NCBI GenBank assembly: GCA_963741905.1
Contig: CAVUJZ010000012.1
Span: forward strand, 80,758 to 144,757
From: an uncultured Acidobacteriota bacterium
GTDB lineage: Bacteria > Acidobacteriota > Thermoanaerobaculia > Gp7-AA8 > CAVUJZ01
Length of the DNA: 64,000 nucleotides
Direction of reading: 5' to 3'
In this document: one piece after another, positions 14,291 to 50,797 of the stretch
Position numbering within the stretch: position 1 is the first letter of the stretch
Layout of the letters: the number at the start of each line of letters is the position of its first letter
The notes under the pieces: model-generated
Databases searched by the model: none
The model's input: only the letters and a program-made list of their open reading frames with translations
Told to the model about the DNA's origin: nothing
Translations under genes and position numbers: made by a program

Positions 14291-15295
14291 GTGGCCGGAC
14301 TTTGTCTCGGATGCGCCGGGTGAAGGTTGGGGTTGACCGACGAGGGCGAAGCGCGTCCGGGGCAAGTTCGGCAGCGTGGAGGAGAGCTCGGGCCCTGCGA
14401 GTTTTCATCATCCGGGAGCCGAACTTGTCTGCTCCGGCGGGTGCCGGCGTCGTGGGGGTGGGCGGTCGGGGCGTGCCGAAGCAGACAAAGTCCGCCCACT
14501 TGGGGAAAGGCAAAGTGGGCGGACTTTGTCTCGGATGCGCCGGGTGAAGGTTGAGGACGGGCGACGAGGGTCAAGCGCATCCGGGACAAGTTCGGCAGCG
14601 TGGAGGAGAGCTCGGGCCCTGCGAGTTTTCATCATCCGGGAGCCGAACTTGTCTCTGCTCCGGCGGGTGCCGGCGTCGTGGGGGTGGACGGTCGGGGCGT
14701 GCCGAAGCAGACAAAGTCCGCCCACTGGGGAAAGGGGGTTGACCGACGAGGGTGAAGCGCATCCGGGACAAGTTCGGCAGCGTGGAGGAGAGCTCGGGCC
14801 CTGCCAGTTTTCATCATCCGGGAGCCGAACTTGTCTGCTCCGGCGCGTACCGGCGTCGTGGGGTGGGCGGTCGGGGCGTGCCGAAGCAGACAAAGTCCGC
14901 CCACTTGGGGTTGACCGACGAGGGTGAAGCGCATCCGGGACAAGTTCGGCAGCGGGGAGGAGAGCTCGGGCCCTGCCAGTTTTCATCATCCGGGAGCCGA
15001 ACTTGTCTGCTCCGGCGGGTGCCGGCGTCGTGGGGTGGACGGTCGGGGCGTGCCGAAGCAGACAAAGTCCGCCCACTTGGGGTTGACCGACGAGGGGAAG
15101 CGCATCCGGGACAAGTTCGGCAGCGTGGAGGAGAGCTCGGGCCCTGCCAGTTTTCATCATCCGGGAGCCGAACTTGTCTGCTCCGGCGGGTGCCGGCGTC
15201 GTGGGCGTGGACGGTCGGGGCGTGCCGAAGCAGACAAAGTCCGCCCACTTGGGGTTGACCGACGAGGGGAAGCGCGTCCGGGACAAGTTCGGCAT
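14291..15295. repeat. Tandem array of a 172-nt unit (~5.3 copies) with internal inverted repeats
   Basis: Unit starts at 14331, 14545 (192-nt variant), 14737, 14909 and 15081, with a partial copy at 15253. The last full units differ at only 3-5 positions. Each has GACAAGTTCGGC/GCCGAACTTGTC around a 45-nt loop. Confidence 0.9.
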
Positions 15296-15420
15296 CCCCG
15301 AAGGAATTTCGGGCGGCCCGGGATCTGCTGGTTGAAGAAGGACAGGCTCCGGGCGCAGCGTCGCCCGTTTCGCCGCTGCGCGTCTGACGCCTCATAATGG
15401 CTGCAGAAGGATGAGGATGA

Positions 15421-17271
15421 ATGATGACGAATGAATCGGAGCAGTCCGCGTTCGGCGCTCTGGGCCTGCGGTCCGAGATCGCCGACACTGTCGCTGATCT
15501 CGGCTACGAGGTACCCACACCGATCCAGGAACAGACCATTCCCCTGCTTCTGGCCGGCAGGGATGTGATGGGTCAGGCACAGACCGGCACCGGAAAGACC
15601 GCCGCGTTCGCGCTCCCCATTCTCCAGGGGATCGATCCAAAGAGCCGGTCGACCCAGGCGCTGATCCTCACTCCGACGCGTGAGCTTGCGATGCAGGTCG
15701 CCGAGGCCATCCACTCCTACTCCCGCAGACTGGGACCGGTGAGCGTGCAGCCGATCTACGGGGGGGCGCCGATCGGGCTGCAGCTCCGGCATCTTCAGCG
15801 TGGAGTTCAGATCGTGGTCGGCACGCCCGGACGCCTCCTCGACCATCTCGATCGCGGCTCGCTCGACCTCGGTGGCATCCGCGTGCTGGTGATCGACGAG
15901 GCGGACGAGATGTTGCGGATGGGCTTCATCGAAGATGTCGAGCGGATTCTCGCAGCCACCCCGAAACAGCGTCAGGTCGCCCTCTTCTCCGCGACCATGC
16001 CCCCGGAAGTGACCCGGATCGCGAAGGTGCATCTTCGCGATCCCGAGCGGGTCGAGATCCGGCACGGAGCGGGGACCACACCGGCGATCGAGCAGCGGGT
16101 GCTGAACATTTCCGAAAACCAGAAGCTGGAGGTCCTGACCCAGATCCTGGAGCTCGAGCCGAGCGAAGCCGTTCTGATCTTCAGGCGGACCAGGGTCGGC
16201 GCCGCGGAGCTCGCCGACAAGCTCGAGGCCCGCGGCTTCGCCGCCGTCGCGCTGCACGGCGACATGAACCAGTCGATGCGCGAAGGGGTGGTCCGGAAGC
16301 TCCGCAGCGGCCAGGTCGAGATCGTGGTCGCGACGGATGTCGCCGCCCGCGGACTCGACGTCGAGCAGATCGCACACGTCATCAACTACGACATCCCCAA
16401 TGATGTGGAGGCCTACGTCCACCGGATTGGCCGGACCGGCCGAGCCGGGCGGAGCGGAGTCGCCACCCTCTTCGTCACTCACCGCGAACGCCGGATGTTG
16501 CGGGAGATCGAACGCTTCACCGGCACCTCGATCGCGACCATGAAGATGCCGACCCAGGCGGACGTCGCGGCGCGGCGCGTTGATCTGCTGAAGGAGAGCA
16601 TCCGGGAGGAGGTCCTTCGCGGAGATCTCGATCTCTATCACCAGCTCGTCGAACAACTGGTCAACGAAGGCGCTCACGACATCGCGGAAATTGCCGCCGC
16701 GGCGGTCCGGCTCGCCAGCGCCGGAAGGGCTCCGGCCATCACCGGCGAGGCGGCCTCTCCGGGCGAGGGAGCGACGGCACGAAAGGCATCCGCCTCCACC
16801 CGACAGGCGACGGCGCGGGCGAAAGATCCGGAGGAACCGAAAGTCCAGCTGATGCTGAGTATCGGACGCGATGCCGGAATCCGGCCCGCAGACGTGGTCG
16901 GATCGATTGCGAACGAGGCGGATATCCCCGGGAGCGTGATCGGCCCGATCGACATCCGCGACGAAATCACCCTGGTCGGTCTTCCGGAACGTTACGCGAA
17001 ACACGTGATCAGTGCGCTGCAGGGTGTGCGCTTTCGCGGCAACCGGGTCGAGATCCGGATTGCAACCGACGCCGACCGGAACAAGCCTGCCCGGCCGACC
17101 GCGGCCGGCCGCCGCGCCGCCTCCGCGGATCGCGGGAAGAAGCGCTCCGACGGGCCGGGTACCCGCGGTCCGGGGAATCGCACCGATCGAAAGAGTGGAC
17201 CGAAACGAGGCGGAGGTTCCAAACCGCACAAGCCCGCGGGAGGCCCGAAGGGTCCGAAGAAGAAGCGATGA
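15421..17271 (+). CDS. deaD: DEAD-box ATP-dependent RNA helicase with DbpA-type C-terminal RNA-binding domain and basic tail
   Basis: Motifs: PTPIQ (Q motif), AQTGTGKT, DEAD (VIDEADEM), SAT, HRIGRTGRAG. Gly/Arg/Lys-rich C-terminal tail. Confidence 0.9.
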   Translation: MMTNESEQSAFGALGLRSEIADTVADLGYEVPTPIQEQTIPLLLAGRDVMGQAQTGTGKTAAFALPILQGIDPKSRSTQALILTPTRELAMQVAEAIHSYSRRLGPVSVQPIYGGAPIGLQLRHLQRGVQIVVGTPGRLLDHLDRGSLDLGGIRVLVIDEADEMLRMGFIEDVERILAATPKQRQVALFSATMPPEVTRIAKVHLRDPERVEIRHGAGTTPAIEQRVLNISENQKLEVLTQILELEPSEAVLIFRRTRVGAAELADKLEARGFAAVALHGDMNQSMREGVVRKLRSGQVEIVVATDVAARGLDVEQIAHVINYDIPNDVEAYVHRIGRTGRAGRSGVATLFVTHRERRMLREIERFTGTSIATMKMPTQADVAARRVDLLKESIREEVLRGDLDLYHQLVEQLVNEGAHDIAEIAAAAVRLASAGRAPAITGEAASPGEGATARKASASTRQATARAKDPEEPKVQLMLSIGRDAGIRPADVVGSIANEADIPGSVIGPIDIRDEITLVGLPERYAKHVISALQGVRFRGNRVEIRIATDADRNKPARPTAAGRRAASADRGKKRSDGPGTRGPGNRTDRKSGPKRGGGSKPHKPAGGPKGPKKKR

Positions 17272-40152: not shown

Positions 40153-40301
40153 GGCTGGCTGTTACAGGTCGGTTCCGGGCATATCCGCTCGCTCGGCGAC
40201 CCGTAGCACGGCGCCGCAGGAGTGGTGCTCGCCCATTCCTCAATCCGGTCCACCGGGCTCCAGTTCGCGCCGTTGCCCGGACGATTCAGTACGGGAAACG
40301 G

Positions 40302-40875
40302 GGGGTCGGAGCAAAGAAGGCAAATTTGCATTCATCCCGTGTGTGCCGCCCCCTTCGGGGCTCACGGGAGGTTCCAGGACGCCATCCGGGCCCTCACTGG
40401 CCCGGCTGAACAAGGTTCCACCCTTCGGGCTCAGGCCTTCATCGCCAGGGCCGGATTTCTTACGCCGTCTCGTCGGCGGGAAGACGTGGCCGCAGCGGCT
40501 CGGCCTGGAATGTTCATTCGTCGTTCTCTTCGGAAGCGGGTTGCCCCTCACCCCGGCCCTCTCCCCGAAGTTCGTTCGCGCTTCGAGGGAACGGTTCGAC
40601 GGGGAGAGGGGGATCGCCTCGGGCGGGTTTCGCTTCGTGGAGCGCGCCCTCGGCGGCGGGACGCCGTCCTCCTCCGCTTCGCTACGGCGCGACAAGCCGG
40701 GGATCGGGCCAGCGGCCCGACCCCCACAGGCTCTTGGGGCCGGAGCTAAAAGTTCAAATTGGCATTCATCTCGTGTGTGCCGCCCCTTCGGGGCTCCGGA
40801 AGATTCGAAGACGCCATCCGGGCCCTCACGGGCCCGGCTAAACAAGGTTCCGCCCTTCGGGCTCAGACCTTCATC
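40302..40875. repeat. Two ~140-nt direct repeats (40302-40444, 40737-40875) that open with the MITE-type terminus
   Basis: GGGGTCGGAGCAAAGAAGGCAAATTTGCATTCATCCCGTGTGTGCCGCCCCCTTCGGGGCTC... versus GGGGCCGGAGCTAAAAGTTCAAATTGGCATTCATCTCGTGTGTGCCGCCCCTTCGGGGCTC... A CCCCTCTCCCCG...CGGGGAGAGGGG hairpin lies between them. Confidence 0.6.
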
Positions 40876-40899
40876 GGGCAATGCCCGTTTCCCTCCCCA

Positions 40900-40940
40900 C
40901 AGAGATGAAAGGCCTCCTGCCCGGGAGGGACAGGAGGCCT
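40900..40940 (-). terminator. Probable terminator of the RND operon
   Basis: 10-bp stem AGGCCTCCTG/CAGGAGGCCT, followed on the minus strand by TTTCATCTCT. Confidence 0.5.
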
Positions 40941-40960
40941 GGGGAGACTTCGGTCGTTGC

Positions 40961-43900
40961 GGCTTACTCGGCTGAGTAGGCGGCGGTGGGCGAGGTCTCG
41001 GGGCGGGGGATTCGCCTCCGGCGAGCCGGGAACGGAGCTTCTTCCAGATCGGCGCCTGGGCCCAGTCGTCGAAGATGCTGTACATCACCGGGGTTCCGAG
41101 CAGCGTGAGCAGAAGCACGAGCGTCTGCCCGCCGATGATGGTCGAGCCGATCGCGCGGTTGGTCCCCGCGCCGGCTCCGCTCGAGGCGACCAGCGGGATC
41201 ATGCCGGCGACGAAGGCCATGGTGGTCATCAGGATCGGCCGCAGGCGGTCGCGGTTCGCATGCATGATCGCATCGAGGCGGCTCATCCCCGCGCTCGCGC
41301 AGCTGGTTGGTGTGGTCGACCTGGAGGATCGAGTTCTTCTTCACGACGCCGAAGAGCACCAGGATGCCGAGCGAGCGAGAAGATGTTCAACGACTGGTTG
41401 AGCACCAGGATCGAGAGCAGCGCGAAGGGCAACCGTCAGAGGCAGCGACGATCAGAATGGTGATCGGGTGGATCCAGCTCTCGAACTGCGCCGCGAGAAT
41501 CAGGTACATGAAGATGATCGAGAGAATGAAGGCGAGCATGAAGTTCTTCGCCGCCTTCCCCTGCTCGCGCGAGCGGCCGGTGAGCCCGGAGGAGTAGTCC
41601 GCCGGGAGCTTCATCTGGTCGACCGTTTTCGCGATCTCGTCGAGCACCGCCTGGGACGAGTATCCCGGCAGCATGTTGGCCATGATCATCACCTGACGGC
41701 GGCGGTTGATCCGGTTGATCACCGAGGGACCGGTCCCCTCGTCGAGGGTGACGACGTCGGTCAGCGGAACCGTTCCGAGTTTCGACGAAGGCACCTCCAT
41801 CCGGCCGATCCGGGCGGCATCGTTCCGCTCACTCACCTCGGCGCGTGCATGCACCTCGTACTCCTCGCCGCCCTCGTAGTAGCTGGTGACGTACTGGCCG
41901 CCGACGAGCACATTGAGCGCGGTGGCGATGTCCTGAACCCGGACTCCGAGGTCGGCGGCCTTGTCCCGGTCGATGTGGACGCCGAGCTCCGGCTTTCCGA
42001 CGATGTAGTCGGTGTCGATGTCGGCCACACCCGGCACCTTGCCGGATTCTCTCCACGATCTTCTCCGAGTACTGATCGAGCTGTTCGAGGTCCGGACCGC
42101 CGAGCCAGAACATGATCTCGGCGTTGCGGCCCGCCGCCGAAGGTGTTGACCGGCGCGACCTGCGCCCGGAGGTTCAACTTCTCGTACTGCGGCAGAATCT
42201 CGGTCCGGACGCGCTGCATGATCTCGAACTGATCCTGATCGCGATCGCCGACATCCTTGAGGCTCACGTAAAGCGAACCGAGGTTGCGGGTCTTCTGAAA
42301 GTCGTCCCCGATGGTCAGAACGGTGGTCTTGACTCCCGGAAGCTCGCGGACGCGCTTGTCGATCGACTGCAGGATCGTCTCGGTGGTTCCCATGCTGGAC
42401 CCTTCCGGCGCGCGGACACTGATCGAGAACTGCGACTCGTCGTCCACCGGCAGGAAGTTCTTGTTGACCGCAATGAACAGCGGCACGGTCGAGAGGAACA
42501 CCAGCACCATGATGGTGACGATCACCCAGCGGTGGGCCATGGACCATTCGAGCATCTTCATGTACCGCCGCTCGAAGAACGAATAGAACCCGGTGTCCCG
42601 CGAGCCGCCGCCGTGGGCCAGATCCTTCCGGGTCAGCCAGCGCGACGAGAGCATCGGGGTGAGCGAAAAACTGACGACCAGCGACACGGCGATGGCGAAC
42701 GCCATGGTCACGCCGAACGAGTACATGAACCGTCCGACGATGCCTCCCATGAACGCAACCGGAAGAAAGACCGCGATCAGCGACAGACTGGTCGCCATGA
42801 CCGCCAGACCGACTTCCTTCGTGCCGGCGACCGCGGCCTGCATCGGGGTCATGTTCTTCTCTTCCATGAAGCGGAAGATGTTCTCCAGCACGACCACGGC
42901 GTCGTCGATGACGATCCCGACGGCGAGGGTCAGCGCCAGAAGTGACAGAACGTTCAGGGTGAAGCCCATCAGCTTCATCGCGGCGAACGTCGCGATCAGC
43001 GAAGAGGGAATCGCAATCGCCGCGATCAGCGTGGGCCGGAATCTCCGGAGGAAGAGCCAGACGATGAACGCCGCGAAGATGGCGCCGAGCAGAAGGTGCT
43101 CCTTCACCGCGTCCAGAGCGGAGTGAATGTAGGTGGACTGGTCACGGACCATCTCCATCTTCCATCCCGCCGGGAGGGTCGGCGCAACTTCATCGACCCG
43201 CTCCTTGATCGCATCGACCACCGCCACGGTGTTCGTTCCGGACTGTTTGAGCATCGACAGAACGACGGCCGGCTTTCCGCCCACCCGGGCGATGGACTCC
43301 GGCTCGGCGGTGCTGTCCTCGACGGTGGCCACGTCGCGGATCCGGATGGTCTCGCCATTGCGCTTCGCCACCGCGATGTCGCCGAACTCGGCAGGATGAT
43401 CGACCCGGCCGTAGGTGCGCAGCGAGAGCTCGCGGAGCGACTGCTCCACCCGTCCACCCGGGATCTGTACGTTCTGAGTCTTCAGGGCGGCGACCACATC
43501 GTTCGAGGTCAGCCCGAGGCTGGAGAGCTTGCCGGTATCCAGCACGATGTTGATCTGCCGTGGCTGGGCGCCGACCATGGTCACCTGACCTACGCCCGAG
43601 ACGGTCTCGAGGCGGCGGCGCAGAACCTTGTCGGCATACTCGGAGATCTCCCTCGACGAGGCCGGACCGGAGAGGGCGACGGCGAGCACCGGGACCGAAT
43701 CCGACTGGATCTTCTGAATGATCGGAGGATCGGCGTCGTCGGGGAGCTCACCGAGAATCGAGCTGACCCGGTCACGCACTTCCTGCGCGGCGACGTCCGG
43801 ATCCTTCTCCAGAACGAATCCGATGTTGACCACCGAGATGTTCTCCGAGGAGGTCGATCGAAGCTCGTCGATGCCACTGATGGTGTTGACCGCTTCCTCG

Positions 43901-44103
43901 ATCTTGTCGGTGATCTCGGTCTCCACCTCCTCCGGAGCGGCGCCCGGAAGCACGGTGGTGATGGTCACGAAGGGGAACTCGATTTTCGGAAACCGGTCCA
44001 CTCCGAGGCTGTAGTAGGAGAAGCCTCCGACGACCACCAGTGCCAGAACCAGCACGGAGGCGAAGACGGGGCGTCGAACACAAATTTCAGCGAGTTTCTG
44101 CAT
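40961..44103 (-). CDS. RND (AcrB/HAE1-type) efflux pump inner-membrane subunit, multiple apparent frameshifts
   Basis: N-terminal ~650 aa intact in ORF 41833..44103 ([29 protein letters not shown]). The rest is spread over ORFs 41829..42113, 41387..42547, 40964..41359 and 40240..41286 ([33 protein letters not shown]). Breaks cluster at ~42045-42125 and ~41285-41460. Confidence 0.85.
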
Positions 44104-44129: not shown

Positions 44130-45036
44130 TTACTGCATTCCTCCGTTCGCGGCGAGGGTGGTCTCGACGCGGGCGAAGAGCCCGGGACGGAGGCGGCCAT
44201 CCTGGTTCGGGAACTCGGCCTCGACGAACATGGTCCGGGAGGTGGGATCGATCACCCCTCCCACCGCGGTGACCTTGCCGGTGAAGGACTCTCCGGGATA
44301 GGGATCCACCTTTGCGCTGACGGTCTGTCCGGGATGGATCGGCGCGAGCATCCGTTCGGGCACGGTGAAGCGCAGCTTGAGCGGCGCGGTCTGGATCACC
44401 ACGAAGGCGACACCGGCCTCGCCGAGATGTTCACCAACGTCGGTTCTGCGCTCCGCGACCACCCCTTCGAGCGGGCGACCGGAGCACGACGTCCGCAAGG
44501 CGCTGACGTGCGATTCCCACCGCCGCTTCCGCCGACTGGCGGGCCGCGGTGGCCTGCTCCCAGGCGGACTGGGTCCGGTCGAAGAGCGACTGCGGGATGG
44601 AGTCCTTCGCCCGAAGCTCCTTCTTCCGGTCGAGCTCGCGGGATGCGTCGGCTTCGGCGGCGCGGGCACGAGCCAGTTCCGCCTCGGCGCGCTGCAGGTC
44701 GAGCCGGGCGTAATCGGTCTCGAGCTTCGCGAGAGGCTGCCCCCGATGAACCCGTGCTCCCTCGTCCACATAAACCTCGGCCACCCTTCCGGGAATCTTC
44801 GGAGCGACCTCGGATCGGGAGGGCGAGATGAACTCGCCGCTGGTCGCCCAGGTGCCGTTGGCTTCGGTGCCATTGGACGGAGTGGGCGCGTTTTCCGGGG
44901 TGACGGCCGCGGCGGCCACCGACTGCACGTCGTCCGGAAGATTCGCGTCGCCCTGAGGCTCTGTCGCGGTCTTCTTCGAGCAGGCCCCGGCGATCGTCGC
45001 CAGGGTCAGAATCAGAATGAATGAGAGTTGTTTCAC
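44130..45036 (-). CDS. RND membrane-fusion (periplasmic adaptor) protein, one apparent frameshift near 44470
   Basis: Lipobox LATIAGAC. GRVAEVYVDEGARVHRGQPLAKLE in ORF 44431..45036. C-terminal beta-barrel part (FTGKVTAVGGVIDPTSRTMFVEAEF) in ORF 44130..44873. GTG start overlaps the tolC stop (GTGA). Confidence 0.8.
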
Positions 45037-46361
45037 TGGGTTTCCTCCGTCATCAGGACAGGTTCGAGTGTTCCGGTGGCGTACCAGACGGACAGGCGCG
45101 CGAGATCGAGGTCGAGCTCGCCGGTGGCGACGGCCCGGCGGGCCTCCGCGAGGGAGGTTTCCGCCGATTCAAGATCGAGTGCGGTCGCCTCCTGCGCACG
45201 ATAGAGATCGAACATCTGCTGGTATTCGGCCTCACTCGCGGCGAGCTGGTCGCGGGCGAGATCGAGATTGGTCTGCGCGGTCTTCAGATGAATCAGCGAG
45301 AGATCGACCTGCTCCCGCACGCCCCGTTTCATTTCCTCCAGCGCGAGCGACGCCTGGGTTCTCTGCTGGGTGGCGATGGCCACCTGGTGTGCGATCTCGA
45401 AGCTGTCGAAGATCGGCAGGTGCAGGTTGAAGCTCAACGCTCCGTACTGGGGTGCCGGAAAATCCGAGGCCTGCGTGGTGTAAGTCGCATCGCTGGTGAT
45501 TACCGGCAGATATTTGCGCTTTTGCTTTTCCACTTCGATCTGGTTGAAGCGGAGATTCAGCTCGGCCTGACGGATCTCCGGCCGGGCTGAAAAGGCCTGA
45601 GCCAGAAGCGCGGGGCGCTCGGGGACTGCCGGCAGGCTCAGCGCGCCCGAGGCGACGGCCACCGGCTGATCCACGGCCAGGTCGATCCGGAGCTCGCTGG
45701 CGGCCGATTCCTTTGCCTGAACCGCGGCGGCGAGACGCCGTTCGGAGGCCTTGACGGCCGATTCGGCACGCAGAACATCGACCTTCGTCGATTCCCCGGC
45801 GTCGTAGAACGCCTTCGCCTGCTCGAGGCGTTTGCGGGCGAGCTCCACGTTCTGGGTCTCGACCGTGACCAGCGCGGCGCCCTGGATCACGCCAAGGTAG
45901 TCGGAGGTGGTCCGGAGCAGGACGCCCTGGCGGGTGCCGAGGGCCTGCTGGCGCGCAACGTTGATGCCGATGCCGGCCTGTTCCAGCGCCCGGGTGGCGC
46001 GTCCCCCGGAGTAGATCGGCTGGCTCAACTTGAGCTCGTAGCGCCAGCTCGTCGCCGGGAGAATGGTCGCGGCGTTGTCATCCGATCCGAACGTCACGGT
46101 CCGGTCGTTGAACGTGGTGCTGGCGTCGAGACCGAGGTGAGGAAGGACCGACGAGCGGAGCTGGCTTCTCTGCTGCTCGGCAACGTCGACACCGATCTCG
46201 GAGCGCTGGACGCTGATGTTTAGCCTCCAGCGCACGCTGGAGTGCCTGCTGAAGGGTGAAGGTGACCGGTGCGGGCGCCTCTTCCGCTCCGCTCTGAGCC
46301 AGAGCGGCGAGCGGCAGGGCAGCAGCATTCCGGCCAGAACCATACGCAGAGAACTTCTCAC
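45033..46361 (-). CDS. TolC-like outer-membrane efflux protein, two compensating frameshifts in the signal-peptide region
   Basis: Two OEP repeats. The N-terminus reads MVLAGMLLP|LAALAQSGAEEAPAPVTFTLQQALQRALEA|NISVQRSEIG only if the frame is switched at ~46315 and ~46225. Confidence 0.8.
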   Translation of the reverse strand: MRSSLRMVLAGMLLPCRSPLWLRAERKRRPHRSPSPFSRHSSVRWRLNISVQRSEIGVDVAEQQRSQLRSSVLPHLGLDASTTFNDRTVTFGSDDNAATILPATSWRYELKLSQPIYSGGRATRALEQAGIGINVARQQALGTRQGVLLRTTSDYLGVIQGAALVTVETQNVELARKRLEQAKAFYDAGESTKVDVLRAESAVKASERRLAAAVQAKESAASELRIDLAVDQPVAVASGALSLPAVPERPALLAQAFSARPEIRQAELNLRFNQIEVEKQKRKYLPVITSDATYTTQASDFPAPQYGALSFNLHLPIFDSFEIAHQVAIATQQRTQASLALEEMKRGVREQVDLSLIHLKTAQTNLDLARDQLAASEAEYQQMFDLYRAQEATALDLESAETSLAEARRAVATGELDLDLARLSVWYATGTLEPVLMTEETQ

Positions 46362-46986
46362 AAAGACTCCTCCTCTGTTTCCCGATTCCCTGAAGAACCA
46401 TCTGCACGAGCCAGTCGACCTCGCCCTCCAGCGGGGAAGGGGTCTGTTCGCCGACCCGCTGCACCGTGACCGCCACGATCCCCTCCTGGAGGAAGATGGC
46501 GAGACGGCTCGCATCGAGTTTTCTGATCTCGCGTTTCTTCATTGCCTCTTCGAGGAACGCAACCAGCCGTCCCATGTACTGCTGGTATTGAGGTCGCGAC
46601 GCACGATCGCAATGGGCGTGATGGCTGGCGGGCTCCCCGCTGAGTTTCGACGAGCGATAGATGTGAAAGAGATCCGCATGACTCTGGAAAAACTCCAGGT
46701 GCGCGCGCAGCAGAAGACGGAACCGCTCTTCGAAGGTCCCGGGCGCTTCGAGAGCGCCGGTGAGAGTCTCCAGGAGACGATCGAGCGATTCGTCGACGCT
46801 CGCCTCCAGCAACTCCTGCTGATTGCGGAAATAGAGATAGATCGTTCCCTTGGAGATGCCGGCTTCGTCGGCGATCTCCTGCATGCTCGCGCCAGACATC
46901 CCCTTGCGGGCGATGACCCGGATTGCGGCATCCCGGATGGTCTGGACGCGAAACGCCTCCACCACTTCTTCTTTGGATTGAGTCAT
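46355..46986 (-). CDS. TetR-family transcriptional regulator
   Basis: HTH ASMQEIADEAGISKGTIYLYF. The 3' end is inferred: adding one G to the G3 run near 46378 ends the frame at a TGA overlapping the tolC GTG (GTGA). Without that the frame runs on to 46078. Confidence 0.75.
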
Positions 46987-47085
46987 AGCCCTCGTACCGG
47001 TGGTTCAGTGATCTGACCGAGCGGTCAGTATGCACGACTCTACGGTCAGTGGGAACGAAAAGTTCCCGGTGAGGGGCAGGCGTAA

Positions 47086-48064
47086 CGGGATGTTTACATA
47101 TCGTGGCCGAATCATTCCGATGTTCGGCCATCGCTCCACTTGCCAATCAGCTCCGGCCCCCGCGCGAGGTCCGCCCGCAGCGTGACCAACACCGCCAGCT
47201 CCGTGGAACCCTCGACCCGAGCTCCGCCCTCACGCTCCGTCGCACCCTGGCCAAACATCAGAATGTTTGCCCACATCGTGGCCGAATCATTCCGATGTTC
47301 GGCCATCGCTCCACTTGCCAATCAGTTCCGGGCCCCGCGCGAGGTCCGCCCGCAGCGTGATCAACACCGCAGCTCCGTGGCACCCTCGACCCGAGTCCGC
47401 CCTCACGCTCCGTCGCACCCTGGCCAAACATCAGAATGTTTGCCCACATCGTGGCCGAATCATTCCGATGTTCGGCCATCGCTCCATTTGCCAATCAGTC
47501 CGGCCCCCGCGCGAGGTCCGCCCGCAGCGTGACCAACACCGCCAGCTCCGTGGCAGCCCTCGACCCGGCTCCGCCCTCACGCTCCGTGGCACCCTGGCCA
47601 AACATCAGAATGTTTGCCCACATCGTGGCCGAATCATTCCGATGTTCGGCCATCGCTCCACTTGCCAATCAGTTCCGGGCCCCGCGCGAAGATCGCCCGC
47701 AGCGCGAGCAACACCGCCAGCTCCTTGGCACCCTCGACCCCAGTGCCGCCGTCACCCTCCGTGGCACCCTGGCCAAACATCAGAATGTTTGCCCACGTAG
47801 CACCTGCCCACAACATCAGAACGTCTGCCCACATCGTGGCCGAATCATTCCGATGTTCGGCCATCGTTCCACTTGCCAATCAGTTCCGGCCCCCGCGCGA
47901 GGCCCGCCCGCAGCGTGAGCGACACCGCCAGCTCCGTGGCACCCTCGACCCCAAGTGCCGCCGTCGCCCTCCGTGGCACCCTGGCCAAACATCAGAATGT
48001 TTGCCCACGTAGCACCTGCCCACAACATCAGAATGTTTGCCCACATCGTGGCCGAATCATTCTG
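47086..48064. repeat. Tandem array of a ~175-nt unit, left block (about 5.5 units)
   Basis: Units start at 47086 (degenerate), 47259, 47432, 47606, 47781 and 47993. The conserved head is CAGAATGTTTGCCCACATCGTGGCCGAATCATTCCGATGTTCGGCCATCG, containing the hairpin GGCCGAA-N11-TTCGGCC. Confidence 0.9.
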
Positions 48065-49585
48065 ACGGTAAATCCTCAGTTGGGAAGCAGGGCTCGCAAG
48101 GGGTTGGTGCGCAGTCTCCAGGGTGAGGGCGAGTAGAAGTTGTTTGTTTCGAGTAACTCGGCGAACTGCGCCGCAGTTGAAGCGGTCATTGCGTCCAAGC
48201 GTGTGAGGATGCGCTGAAACTCGTCTCTCCAGCGCCCCTTCAACCCAAGTCGGAGCAGGATCTGTCGCCCCCGGGAGCCGACCAGCGCGCCGATGACGAG
48301 AATCCTGTTCCGGATCGTGCTCAGAGTCAGCGACGGATCCTGCAGTACGGTCGCCTTGAAAAAGGCGATCAGGTTGAATGTGAAGATGATCAGGCGGAAT
48401 GCGGCCTCGGTTCCTTCAAATTTTTTCAGACAAAATCCGTCCGCATTGAAGTCGTACTTGAGTTCCTTGATGCGGTTCTCGCAGTCCCCTCGCCCGTTGT
48501 AGAACCGCCACACCTGGACCGGATCGGTCGTCAGGCTCGTCACCATCGCACGGTATTCGTAGTCGATGATCTCGAACAGCCCGTTTTCCTTCCGCACGAT
48601 CCTGCGTCGGACGATCATCCGTCGCGGAGCGTCCCACTTGGACGACTGGTACATCGCTTCGGTGATCTCTTCATCGGTGCGGAGTCGTTGCCATCCATCC
48701 AGCCCGGCGCACCACTTCTTGAACGGCTTCGACATCTTCGCCACCACGACATAGGGCAGATTCAATGACTCGAACTTTCTGAGAAGCGCGTCCGAATAGA
48801 AGCCTGAGTCCGCTCGCACGGCCTCGATTTGAAACCCCGGAGGAATCCGCTCCCACAGCTCGCTCATGAACTCACAGACGCCTCGGTGTGGCGACGCGGC
48901 TCCGGATCGCATCCACGCATGCACGATCATCTTGGATTTGGACAGCATGGCCAGTAGGGGGTGGTGGGATCGCGCACCTGGACGAACCGGGTTGTATCCC
49001 TTGGTGCTCCCCTCCTGGTTCCCATGCCGTTGAAAGACTGTCGAGTCGAGGTCGAGAACGTCCCGCGACGTGATGTGGCTCAAAGCCTGGAATACCCACT
49101 GGCTCAGACACTCATGCAGGTGTTCTCCCTGGCTGGGAAGCAGGTTGCCCAGGTATCTCGTCACCGACGATGCAGAGCCGAACCGCTTCGCTCCCGCCGC
49201 TGCCCGCACCACCTCATCCTCGCGGATCCGCTCCACGTGTTCGAACCGTCGTCCGCCCATCAGCACTGTGAACATCAGTTGCACCATCATGTCCACGACC
49301 GGAACCTGATTCGGCGAGGTCCGCCCATCGGGCAAGGCGCGCCGAAGAAGCTCCCGCACTCCCAGCTTTTCCATTAACCGCCCGATGCTGACCAGCCCTC
49401 CCCACCCGCTGACCGGCTTCGTTGTGTACTCCACTCCCAGCTCGCTTGCTCTGCTATCATTCGTTCGCACCGTTCTGTCCCTACCTTCGCTTGTTTGTTT
49501 TTGATCCAAACGAATGATACCGAAGGAGTTCGGGGCGGTGCATCATCCTCTCTCCTCCTCCAACTGAGGATTTTCCGTCAGAATG
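48058..49585 (-). mobile_element. IS1380-family insertion sequence
   Basis: Inverted repeats CATTCTGACGG[T/A]AAATCCTCAGTTGG at both ends (25 of 26 bp match). The outer 7 nt also match the tandem-repeat unit, so the ends could be 48065/49578. One transposase ORF. Confidence 0.8.
48076..49509 (-). CDS. IS1380-family DDE transposase
   Basis: QEGSTKGYNPVRPGARSHHPLL and FYNGRGDCENRIKELKYDF match the family signatures (cf. ISEcp1 GASKGYNPKK / YYEKRGNAENYIKEAKYD). Confidence 0.85.
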   Translation of the reverse strand: MDQKQTSEGRDRTVRTNDSRASELGVEYTTKPVSGWGGLVSIGRLMEKLGVRELLRRALPDGRTSPNQVPVVDMMVQLMFTVLMGGRRFEHVERIREDEVVRAAAGAKRFGSASSVTRYLGNLLPSQGEHLHECLSQWVFQALSHITSRDVLDLDSTVFQRHGNQEGSTKGYNPVRPGARSHHPLLAMLSKSKMIVHAWMRSGAASPHRGVCEFMSELWERIPPGFQIEAVRADSGFYSDALLRKFESLNLPYVVVAKMSKPFKKWCAGLDGWQRLRTDEEITEAMYQSSKWDAPRRMIVRRRIVRKENGLFEIIDYEYRAMVTSLTTDPVQVWRFYNGRGDCENRIKELKYDFNADGFCLKKFEGTEAAFRLIIFTFNLIAFFKATVLQDPSLTLSTIRNRILVIGALVGSRGRQILLRLGLKGRWRDEFQRILTRLDAMTASTAAQFAELLETNNFYSPSPWRLRTNPLRALLPN

Positions 49586-50135
49586 TTTGCCCACATCGTG
49601 GCCGAATCATTCCGATGTTCGGCCATCGCTCCACTTGCCAATCAGTTCCGGCCCCCGCGCGAGGCTCGCCCGCAGCGTGAGCAACACCGCCAGCTCCATG
49701 GCACCCTCGAGCCCGAGTTGCCAACCCTCACGCTCCGTGGCACCCTGGCCAAACATCAGAATGTTTGCCCACATCGTGGCCGAATCATTCCGATGTTCGG
49801 CCATCGCTCCATTTGCCAATCAGTTCCGGCCCCCGCGCGAGGTCCGCCCGCAGCGTGAGCAACACCGCCAGCTCCGTGGAACCCTCGACCCAAGTTCCGC
49901 CCTCACGCTCCGTGGCACCCTGGCCAAACATCAGAATGTTTGCCCACATCGTGGCCGAATCATTCCGATGTTCGGCCATCGTTCCACTTGCCAATCAGTT
50001 CCGGCCCCCGCGCGAGTCTCGCCCGCAGCGTGAGCAATCCCACCAGCTCCGTGGCACCCTCGACCCCAAGTGCCACCGTCGCCCTCCGTGGCACCCTGGC
50101 CAAACATCAGAATGTTTGCCCACGTAGCTCGAACC
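49579..50135. repeat. Tandem array of the ~175-nt unit, right block (3 units plus a partial)
   Basis: Units start at 49579, 49757, 49932 and 50108 (partial). Same unit as 47086..48064. Confidence 0.9.
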
Positions 50136-50314
50136 AGGGGCCGCTTCCCAACTGAGATACCGTCGGAATCCTGATCCACAGCCGGGAACAAGGGCATGGG
50201 TCGTGCTGTTGAGTAAAGCGTACCGTTGTGGTACTGTTTCCCGCCCTTCGTCCGGGATGGCCTGGCGACGCCCTCAGGTGCACGGTTCGTGGACCACAAC
50301 CAACGGAACAGACG

Positions 50315-50793
50315 ATGCTCAAGATCTCACGACTCACAGACTACGGACTTCTCGCCAGCGTCTATCTCGCCCGCAAGACGGGAGAGGTGGTCGCATCGCG
50401 GGAGATCGCGGAGTTCTATGCGCTTCCGCTTCCGATGGTGTCGAAGGTGCTGAAGGTTCTCCAGGAGGGGAACATGATCAGCTCGCACCGGGGAGTCGGG
50501 GGAGGCTATTCCTTCGACGCAGATCCGGAGTCGATCAGCCTCGGTGATCTTCTGGCGGTTCTGGAAGGTCCGTGGGATCTGGTGGAGTGCGAGACTCTGG
50601 ACGAGGCGGGACATGCGGTCTGTACGATCCGGTCCTGCTGCCCGTCCCGCAGCTTCATGTTCGGAATCAACCGGGCGATCAAGCACGGATTCGACAAGAT
50701 TACTCTCGGCGACCTGGCCCGCGGCGTGAGCCCCGAGGTCTGGTCGATCGGCGACGGCGCGGTGCCGTCCGAACCCACGGAGGAGATGCAGGT

Positions 50794-50797
<4 letters not shown>
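50315..50797 (+). CDS. Rrf2-family transcriptional regulator (IscR/SufR-like)
   Basis: MLKISRLTDYGLLASVYLA, LPMVSKVLKVLQEGNMISSHRGVGGGY. Cys cluster CTIRSCC. Confidence 0.85.

Follow-up and report, generated by a model that had tools for sequence, protein, structure and literature searches.

We found that the ~175-nt repeats between an efflux operon and a suf operon in a 64-kb stretch of an uncultured Acidobacteriota genome (contig CAVUJZ010000012.1; hereafter the window, in whose own numbering all positions are given) form a tandem array, as an earlier note on this DNA had described. This array is probably a non-coding tandem repeat, or bacterial minisatellite, whose ~175-nt unit carries palindromes of the kind seen in doublets of repetitive extragenic palindromes (REPs). 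The earlier note had offered two readings, a family of tandem micro-genes encoded by minus-strand open reading frames (ORFs) or a structured non-coding satellite; the non-coding half of that choice stands, whereas the micro-genes are contradicted by the substitutions, by shuffled sequences and by the mosaic of reading frames in a related array. Tandem Repeats Finder reports a period of 175 with 93% matches on either side of an interrupting insertion sequence (IS), and a 35-nt core (CATCGTGGCCGAATCATTCCGATGTTCGGCCATCG) is found eight times versus 0.00 expected from shuffling, always within the array. The period agrees with the earlier description, but the count of about nine units does not: the array, at approximately 47086–50127, has eight full units of 173–212 nt plus stubs, split by an IS1380-family element as follows.

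47086..48062, no strand: left block of the array, with an edge copy of the palindrome apex, units U1–U5 and the 19-nt stub of U6
47796..47831, no strand: 36-nt stretch inserted in U4 that partly duplicates the region of palindrome P1 and gives a third palindrome-like copy
48008..48043, no strand: 36-nt insertion in U5, the same as in U4
49581..50127, no strand: right block of the array, with a duplicated palindrome apex and U7–U9, stopping 14 nt into the next unit (GAATGTTTGCCCAC)

With unit boundaries re-cut at CATCGTGGCC, the full units start at 47099, 47274, 47447, 47621, 47832, 49594, 49772 and 49947 and measure, in that order, 175, 173, 174, 211, 212, 178, 175 and ~176 nt; U6 is a 19-nt stub (48044–48062) cut off by the IS. 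The left edge is a diverged junction copy (GGATGTTTACATATCGTGGCC) in which a diverged palindrome apex can be recognized at 47089–47104, and the right edge halts after GAATGTTTGCCCAC. The array is bounded by short direct repeats, GGATGTTTAC on the left and GAATGTTTGC on the right, and exceeds a whole number of units by 14 nt, which suggests that a founding duplication between these repeats arose by slippage or illegitimate recombination. Variants are shared in blocks by units that are not neighbors: U5 and U9 have six in common, a +1 indel among them, and U1–U3 share others. Such sharing fits later unequal exchange or gene conversion, so that the array may have grown and become partly homogenized by unequal recombination or gene conversion. 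GTAG, one of the two tags (GTAG or CGTC) that go with REPs, is confined to the 36-nt insert and the right edge. Strand asymmetry is strong across 47000–50000 (GC skew of −0.18 to −0.28), the minus strand being G-rich with several G3–G5 runs per unit.

The main point left unexplained is the extra conservation of one part of the unit, which appears to be under constraint both within the array and in the related array P0125 described below. When the eight units are aligned, 39 of the 40 substitution events fall outside a 67-nt core (binomial P ~ 1e-7), in agreement with the earlier observation that the remainder of the unit carries most substitutions. The invariant stretch, previously placed in the first ~70 nt of each unit, is in fact 67 nt long and wraps around the unit junction. 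The rest of the unit is a linker of ~108 nt that holds almost all of the variation, and these inter-core stretches are homologous to each other at ~85–95% identity. Two palindromes lie in the core: P1, GGCCAAACAT-CAGA-ATGTTTGCCC, and P2, GGCCGAA-N11-TTCGGCC, each with eight copies in the window, all of them in the array.

49746..49804, no strand: representative 59-nt core with P1 and P2 in inverted orientation; the same core is found at every unit junction

P1 measures 24 nt and P2 25 nt, or ~28 nt each as members of the inverted doublet. Both are imperfect and extragenic, lying between tetR and rrf2, and their size is within the 20–40 nt of REP palindromes. Read from the sequence, P2 agrees with the reverse complement of P1 at 23 of 28 positions and with P1 in direct orientation at 19 of 29; because it is closer to the reverse complement, we regard the pair as an inverted doublet with a 3-nt spacer. 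As in REPs, bacterial interspersed mosaic elements (BIMEs) and REP doublets forming hairpins (REPINs), the inverted doublet is predicted to give a longer hairpin, here of 59 nt. The hairpin GGCCGAA-N11-TTCGGCC that had been noted earlier is therefore present, but as one half of a longer, imperfect 59-nt palindrome.

Folding predictions suggest two forms for this module. As DNA, the plus strand of the core is predicted to form two small hairpins (−17.5 kcal/mol, z = −4.6), and the minus strand a single long one (−22 kcal/mol, z = −7.0). As RNA, a unit centered on the junction has z = −5.4 on either strand, and the minus strand gives the more stable fold (−83.8 versus −64.3 kcal/mol) because two A.C mismatches of the plus strand become G.U pairs. 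An extended rod-like fold was considered and rejected, as its covariation term was unfavorable (+1.23) and substitutions break its outer pairs. The better folding of the minus-strand RNA could also indicate an array of small-RNA genes, in which a ~60-nt minus-strand hairpin RNA would be made from every unit or cut out of a read-through transcript and would act in trans, for example as a regulator or in association with the nucleoid. The invariance of the core here and in P0125 would suit such genes, and the units of Escherichia coli REP325 are transcribed as nucleoid-associated RNAs (naRNAs; PMC4550694). We nonetheless consider this explanation unlikely: two wobble positions of the same polarity are expected by chance half the time, there is no covariation, and no promoter- or terminator-like site was seen in any unit. 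A search of the units by eye for sigma-54 and extracytoplasmic function (ECF)-type motifs likewise gave nothing convincing. Across the whole window, Rfam returned 0 matches at the gathering threshold; the best for the array, mir-9436, scored 28.9 bits versus a threshold of 80, and sub-threshold microRNA-precursor models of this kind reflect any long hairpin.

Whether the array encodes proteins was the central question raised by the earlier note, which had correctly located four minus-strand ORFs of 69–81 aa.

49785..49994, minus strand: example of the reiterated ORF, 69 aa, judged incidental
47112..47321, minus strand: further reiterated ORF, 69 aa
47634..47879, minus strand: further reiterated ORF, 81 aa
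49607..49819, minus strand: further reiterated ORF, 70 aa

All four begin with TTG, and each has its stop codon in the hairpin loop. As micro-genes, they would form a tandem family of 54–81-aa proteins ending in ...GPELIGKWSDGRTSE. In favor of this possibility, the ORF survives in four units, the length differences of +3 and +36 preserve the frame, gene callers annotate the ORFs (P0001–P0004), and some of the 1-nt indels could be assembly errors. The substitutions, however, carry no coding signal. With indel-rich columns 52–69 set aside and each column-by-allele event counted once, 25 clean events remain (14 transitions and 11 transversions), which are distributed 7/9/9 over codon positions 1/2/3, with no excess at the third. 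Between 28 and 32% of these events are synonymous (7 in the consensus context, 8 in the tandem context), versus 31% for random substitutions (binomial p = 0.83); the other five frames have 5–9 synonymous events each, and none of the frames is conspicuous. The earlier hand comparison of units 1 and 8, in which 3 of 6 differences were synonymous, is reproduced by our count.

The indels point in the same direction, albeit less firmly. They comprise two −1 events in U2, a −1 event in U3, a +1 event in U5 and U9, +3 in U7 and +36 in U4 and U5, so that at least five 1-nt events stand against two that are multiples of three. The in-frame length differences reported earlier are thus real, including the 36-nt insertion in two units, but they are outnumbered, and there is no bias toward multiples of three. 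Half of the units (4/8) are out of frame, and the frameshifting +1 indel is shared by the non-adjacent units U5 and U9. Neither codon-position bias nor a bias of indels toward multiples of three, the two signals chosen beforehand as tests of coding, was seen across all units. The caution that the 1-nt indels might be technical was justified, since conserved genes nearby (SufB, a resistance-nodulation-division (RND) pump and a TolC-like gene) are frameshifted in this assembly; for this reason we treat the 1-nt indels as weak evidence either way, and our verdict depends on the substitutions, on the ORF length expected by chance and on the relative P0125.

The length of the ORFs is readily explained. 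Among dinucleotide shuffles of a unit read in tandem, 98% have an ORF of at least 69 codons and 95% an ATG-initiated ORF of at least 54 codons. GC content at codon positions 1/2/3 is 0.61/0.56/0.67 in the ORF, versus ~0.65/0.47/0.78 in real genes of the window. Starts and stops lie within the invariant palindrome, and, as had been noted, no canonical Shine-Dalgarno sequence precedes either start. Pfam has no family for the small ORFs. The minus-strand ORFs look like accidental by-products of a stop-poor, GC-rich repeat, and the micro-gene explanation, which is not supported by any of these comparisons, is close to refuted.

Database searches led to the same conclusion by a different route. In a word-indexed search of 5.8 billion proteins, the small ORFs matched only the four ORF calls of the window itself. 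When 1.84 billion cluster representatives were searched exhaustively with HMMER, P0125 was returned (E = 4e-57, five matched stretches). This predicted 311-aa "protein" is encoded on another NCBI/ENA contig, of 58,640 bp, and has a 59-aa repeat (177-nt unit) in three identical copies, together with an edge unit that has diverged and a tail of unrelated sequence. Judged by this make-up, P0125 is a read-through translation of a related tandem array. When its unit is compared with a window unit by tblastn, residues 1–27 match in frame 0 (MWANILMFGQGATE...VEGATEL), residues 28–41 match the second frame (CGLDHAAG versus CGVDHAAG) and residues 35–59 match the third (GEESRGARIWLAGATMAEHRNDSAT versus GR.SRGGRN*LASGAMAEHRNDSAT). 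Because P0125 aligns across three frames, it is the nucleotides that are conserved along the unit and not the reading frame; ...ELIGKWSD, the C-terminus that the micro-protein would have, is not preserved. The stretch that is identical between P0125 and the window (24/24 residues, or ~72 nt) is exactly the palindromic core. The P0125 tail has no match in the window, which indicates that the two arrays lie in different contexts. P0125 diverges after its third unit at precisely the point, after MWANIL, where the IS is joined in the window.

Other searches gave no further relatives. P0125 used as a query returned only itself, and P0126 (506 aa, E = 3e-4) was rejected as an unrelated repetitive protein. 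The pattern GTGGCCGAA-N11-TTCGGCCATCG had 11 hits in genome contigs and 10 in metagenome contigs, all of them single chance occurrences with nothing similar beyond the pattern itself, whose outer CG may have excluded the P0125 array. There were 0 hits in viral contigs and no match to the unit in plasmids.

The array is also the landing site of a transposable element, at a position that bears directly on the palindrome.

48063..49580, minus strand: IS1380-family insertion sequence, 1518 bp, with 21-nt terminal inverted repeats TGACGGTAAATCCTCAGTTGG / CCAACTGAGGATTTTCCGTCA
48076..49509, minus strand: transposase gene, 477 aa, DDE_Tnp_1_4 / DDE_Tnp_1 (DDE_Tnp_1_4, E = 4e-52)
48031..48062, no strand: left copy of a perfect 32-bp direct repeat flanking the IS (GAATGTTTGCCCACATCGTGGCCGAATCATTC)
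49581..49612, no strand: right copy of the same 32-bp direct repeat
50143..50169, minus strand: left-end remnant of an IS of this type, inverted (27/30 aligned positions; 0/500 shuffles score as high)

The family was assigned from plasmid relatives of the transposase that carry an IS1380-family annotation. The 32-bp repeat on either side of the element is the apex of the core palindrome, and the two IS joints lie at mirror-image positions of that palindrome, both at the motif CATCR^GAATG, one on each strand. Elements of the IS1380 family make duplications of 4–5 bp, and a 32-bp duplication is therefore anomalous; it is the second point that our analysis leaves unexplained. Two models fit it, one in which the ends were joined in a staggered manner at mirror-image sites of an extruded cruciform, and another in which a normal insertion in one arm was followed by an IS-adjacent deletion extending to the equivalent site of the next unit. 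The IS-end remnant lies 16 nt beyond the right edge of the array, from which it appears that the element visited this place at least twice. The outer flank of the remnant has a weak resemblance to the palindrome apex (13/22 positions).

Given this association, the units themselves might be miniature inverted-repeat transposable elements (MITEs), that is, non-autonomous derivatives of the resident IS whose ends abut tail to head to form the arms of the palindrome. The IS stands in for exactly one unit body, with the same junction sequences on either side, and the unit arm CATTCCGATGTT resembles the ends of both the IS (CATTCTGACGGT, 9/12) and the remnant (ATTCCGACGGT, 10/12). The similarity is confined to these ~12 nt, however, and the units have no flanking target duplications. 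Comparisons of the unit body with the interior and sub-terminal 60 nt of the IS were not significant, with 50/300, 232/300 and 283/300 shuffles scoring as well. As the unit body is unlike the IS, we do not regard the units as its MITEs despite the similar arm tips, and a MITE origin seems to us quite improbable.

The genomic context of the array is one of ordinary chromosomal genes, with the efflux operon on the minus strand and rrf2-sufBCDS-nifU on the plus strand. The two flanking start positions (46986 for tetR and 50315 for rrf2) and the interruption by an IS are as previously given.

46078..46986, minus strand: tetR-family regulator, first gene of the tetR-outer membrane protein (OMP)-membrane fusion protein (MFP)-RND efflux operon; the array begins ~100 nt upstream
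50315..50797, plus strand: Rrf2-family regulator at the head of the suf operon, with the array end 188 nt upstream of it

A location between two regulator genes raises the possibility that the palindromes are binding sites of the adjacent TetR or Rrf2, amplified so as to titrate the repressor, and P1 (AAACAT-CAGA-ATGTTT) is indeed a perfect 6+4+6 palindrome of operator size. A better candidate is the perfect palindrome CTGACCGAGCGGTCAG at 47013–47028, 27 nt upstream of the tetR start, a likely TetR operator. A further half-site can be seen at ~47040–47050, and a 6-bp hairpin, GGGAACGAAAAGTTCCC, lies at 47051–47067 between CTGACCGAGCGGTCAG and the array. On the other side, the closest Rrf2 homologues (at most 78% identity) come from Thermoanaerobaculia, a class of Acidobacteriota, and the Rrf2-suf loci of relatives with 72–76% Rrf2 identity have neither the unit nor such a palindrome in their upstream regions, which are 110–160 nt long and have different neighbors. 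The P0125 array, moreover, has a different flank. Taken together, these observations make an amplified operator array highly improbable.

The genes around the array also inform on the quality of the assembly. SufB has at least two frame switches between 51227 and 51490 (~260 nt), the RND pump (40240–44103) is broken up into two or more ORFs (matching profile positions 2–644 and 953–1020), and the TolC-like gene (45033–46986 region) starts in the tetR frame, with tetR running on to 302 aa; SufC, SufD, SufS and NifU are intact. Such frameshifts in conserved genes mean either that the assembly has local indel errors or that these are pseudogenes. No integrase, REP-associated tyrosine transposase (RAYT), reverse transcriptase or cas gene was found among the 45 window ORFs scanned.

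The window contains a second tandem array at 14335–15299, just upstream of a DEAD-box helicase gene (15421–17271, plus strand) and flanked on its other side by an ORF of 89 aa. Its units measure 224, 182, 172, 172 and 172 nt, followed by a 43-nt stub, at ~95% identity. The array contains the inverted repeats GACAAGTTCGGC/GCCGAACTTGTC and bears hairpins, among them a perfect 19-bp stem at 14483–14531. This array has no Rfam match, and its similarity to the first array is not significant. The presence of two unrelated hairpin-bearing arrays within 64 kb shows that this genome is prone to making them.

Several observations weigh against interpreting the first array as a REP-like minisatellite. 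There is no covariation to support the hairpin: the core pairs never vary, which makes them uninformative on structure, and the outer pairs are broken by substitutions. The invariance of the core could stem from recent homogenization instead of selection. No sigma-70 promoter consensus or terminator-like site was found in the units, and the possible local indel errors in the assembly make the unit lengths uncertain. A single relative, P0125, is known, and from its protein translation alone. Finally, REPs are by definition dispersed and numerous, whereas no copy of the palindromes lies outside the array in the 64-kb window, and no RAYT (Y1_Tnp) is encoded among the scanned ORFs. For these last two reasons we liken the array to a tandem REP or REPIN cluster and do not class it as a member of those families.

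Nonetheless, a non-coding minisatellite built around a REP-doublet-type palindrome remains the explanation we favor. In this model, each 67-nt module presents two inverted REP-like palindromes that can form either two small hairpins or a single 59-nt hairpin or cruciform. We infer that any function would be exerted at the level of the nucleic acid through the palindromes, which might act as cruciforms or nucleoid-protein binding sites in DNA or as hairpins in read-through transcripts. Action of this kind has been shown for E. coli REP325 and its naRNA (PMC4550694), and tandem REP arrays in Pseudomonas fluorescens have been proposed to act likewise. A more ambitious form of the model, to which we give little credence at present, holds that the double palindrome is a functional, lineage-specific module of Thermoanaerobaculia maintained in arrays at several loci or in several genomes, that it works as an extruded cruciform or hairpin RNA in nucleoid organization, in the manner of REP325 and naRNA, and that the IS1380-family transposase recognizes the cruciform and joins its ends 32 bp apart at mirror-image sites. 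To our knowledge, such a mirror-image 32-bp target geometry has not been described for DDE transposases, and the duplication around this IS offers a concrete case for testing cruciform-spanning integration by a DDE transposase.

These results have further implications. They remove a false lead, since gene callers annotate the ORFs of such arrays, both in the window (P0001–P0004) and in P0125 as a 311-aa "protein". They document a REP-array-like architecture in the little-studied acidobacterial class Thermoanaerobaculia and, if the core is functional, tandem palindrome clusters as nucleoid or RNA elements would extend beyond Proteobacteria. In addition, this array and the one at 14.3 kb would serve as markers of the variable-number tandem repeat (VNTR) type and are sites at which assemblies of this lineage may go wrong.

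Among known systems, several that resemble the array superficially can be set aside. The regularly spaced, partly palindromic repeat recalls a clustered regularly interspaced short palindromic repeat (CRISPR) locus, but the "spacers" duplicate one another, conservation extends over 67 nt, and no cas domains were found in the scanned ORFs of the window; the sole hit to a CRISPR direct-repeat (DR) model lies inside the IS and scores 23.7 bits versus a threshold of 45. Integron attC sites and clusters of attC sites lacking integron-integrases (CALIN) were compared by the consensus R'' RYYYAAC and R' GTTRRRY: both GCCAAAC and GTTCGGC depart from it at position 4, the stem is continuous where attC stems are bulged, all of the "cassettes" are homologous to each other where those of integrons differ, and there is no Phage_integrase among the ORFs scanned. 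A diversity-generating retroelement (DGR) was rejected because the substitutions (14 transitions, 11 transversions) are not adenine-specific, and a type I toxin-antitoxin system of the Ldr or Ibs/Sib type because the small ORF has no hydrophobic stretch of about 18 or more residues. Known ribozymes were likewise considered and rejected.

Other repeat families come closer. Mycobacterial interspersed repetitive units (MIRUs) and related VNTR loci are intergenic tandem repeats of tens to ~150 nt, and MIRUs contain incidental small ORFs; MIRU units are shorter than those described here and are not built from palindromes. In Neisseria, the short inverted-repeat elements of the Neisseria intergenic mosaic element (NIME)/dRS3 system flank semi-variable blocks and are targets for mobile elements. 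The blocks of NIMEs belong to several unrelated families, whereas the linkers of the present array are all homologous.

The closest parallels are with REPs. Among elements that target REPs, ISPpu9 and IS1397 for example, the IS110 and IS3 families predominate. In Tobes & Pareja (2006, PMC1525189), REPs are documented as targets and hot spots of IS elements, as with IS1397 in BIMEs, and the IS likewise sits inside a palindromic element here, with the remnant of a second IS end adjoining; the IS names given in the abstract of that paper include no IS1380-family member, and the duplication here is 32 bp. In E. coli, REP325 is a BIME-2-type array in which a 77-bp unit is repeated six times in tandem with constant spacers. 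Two palindromes in every unit (Y and Z2) are able to form cruciforms. REP325 is transcribed as naRNAs that act with HU, and a role in the nucleoid has been shown for it (Qian et al. 2015, PMC4550694). Like the present array, it is intergenic and consists of highly homologous units with two different palindromes each. Its units are less than half as long (77 bp versus ~175 nt), it lies within a dispersed family of 355 REP elements, and its HU binding and nucleoid role have been demonstrated, whereas any such role of the present array would be hypothetical.

In P. fluorescens SBW25, tandem REP arrays have two palindromes that alternate at 112 and 72 bp, with a period of 184 bp, and clusters of REPINs contain near-identical doublets repeated in tandem together with their flanks (Bertels & Rainey 2011, PMC3116915). 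The SBW25 REPs are dispersed, have hundreds of copies and are linked to RAYTs, unlike the palindromes described here, which have no copy outside the array in 64 kb. The spacer between palindromes is just 3 nt in the present array, and its sequences are unrelated to those of SBW25. The organization is nevertheless similar in that both are ordered extragenic arrays with two palindromes and their spacers in every unit, in which inverted doublets form a long hairpin, and even the periods are comparable (184 bp, as 112 + 72, versus 175 nt, as 143 + 32). The array shares the architecture of tandem REP clusters, namely an inverted palindrome doublet and a spacer, repeated in tandem, extragenic and targeted by an IS.

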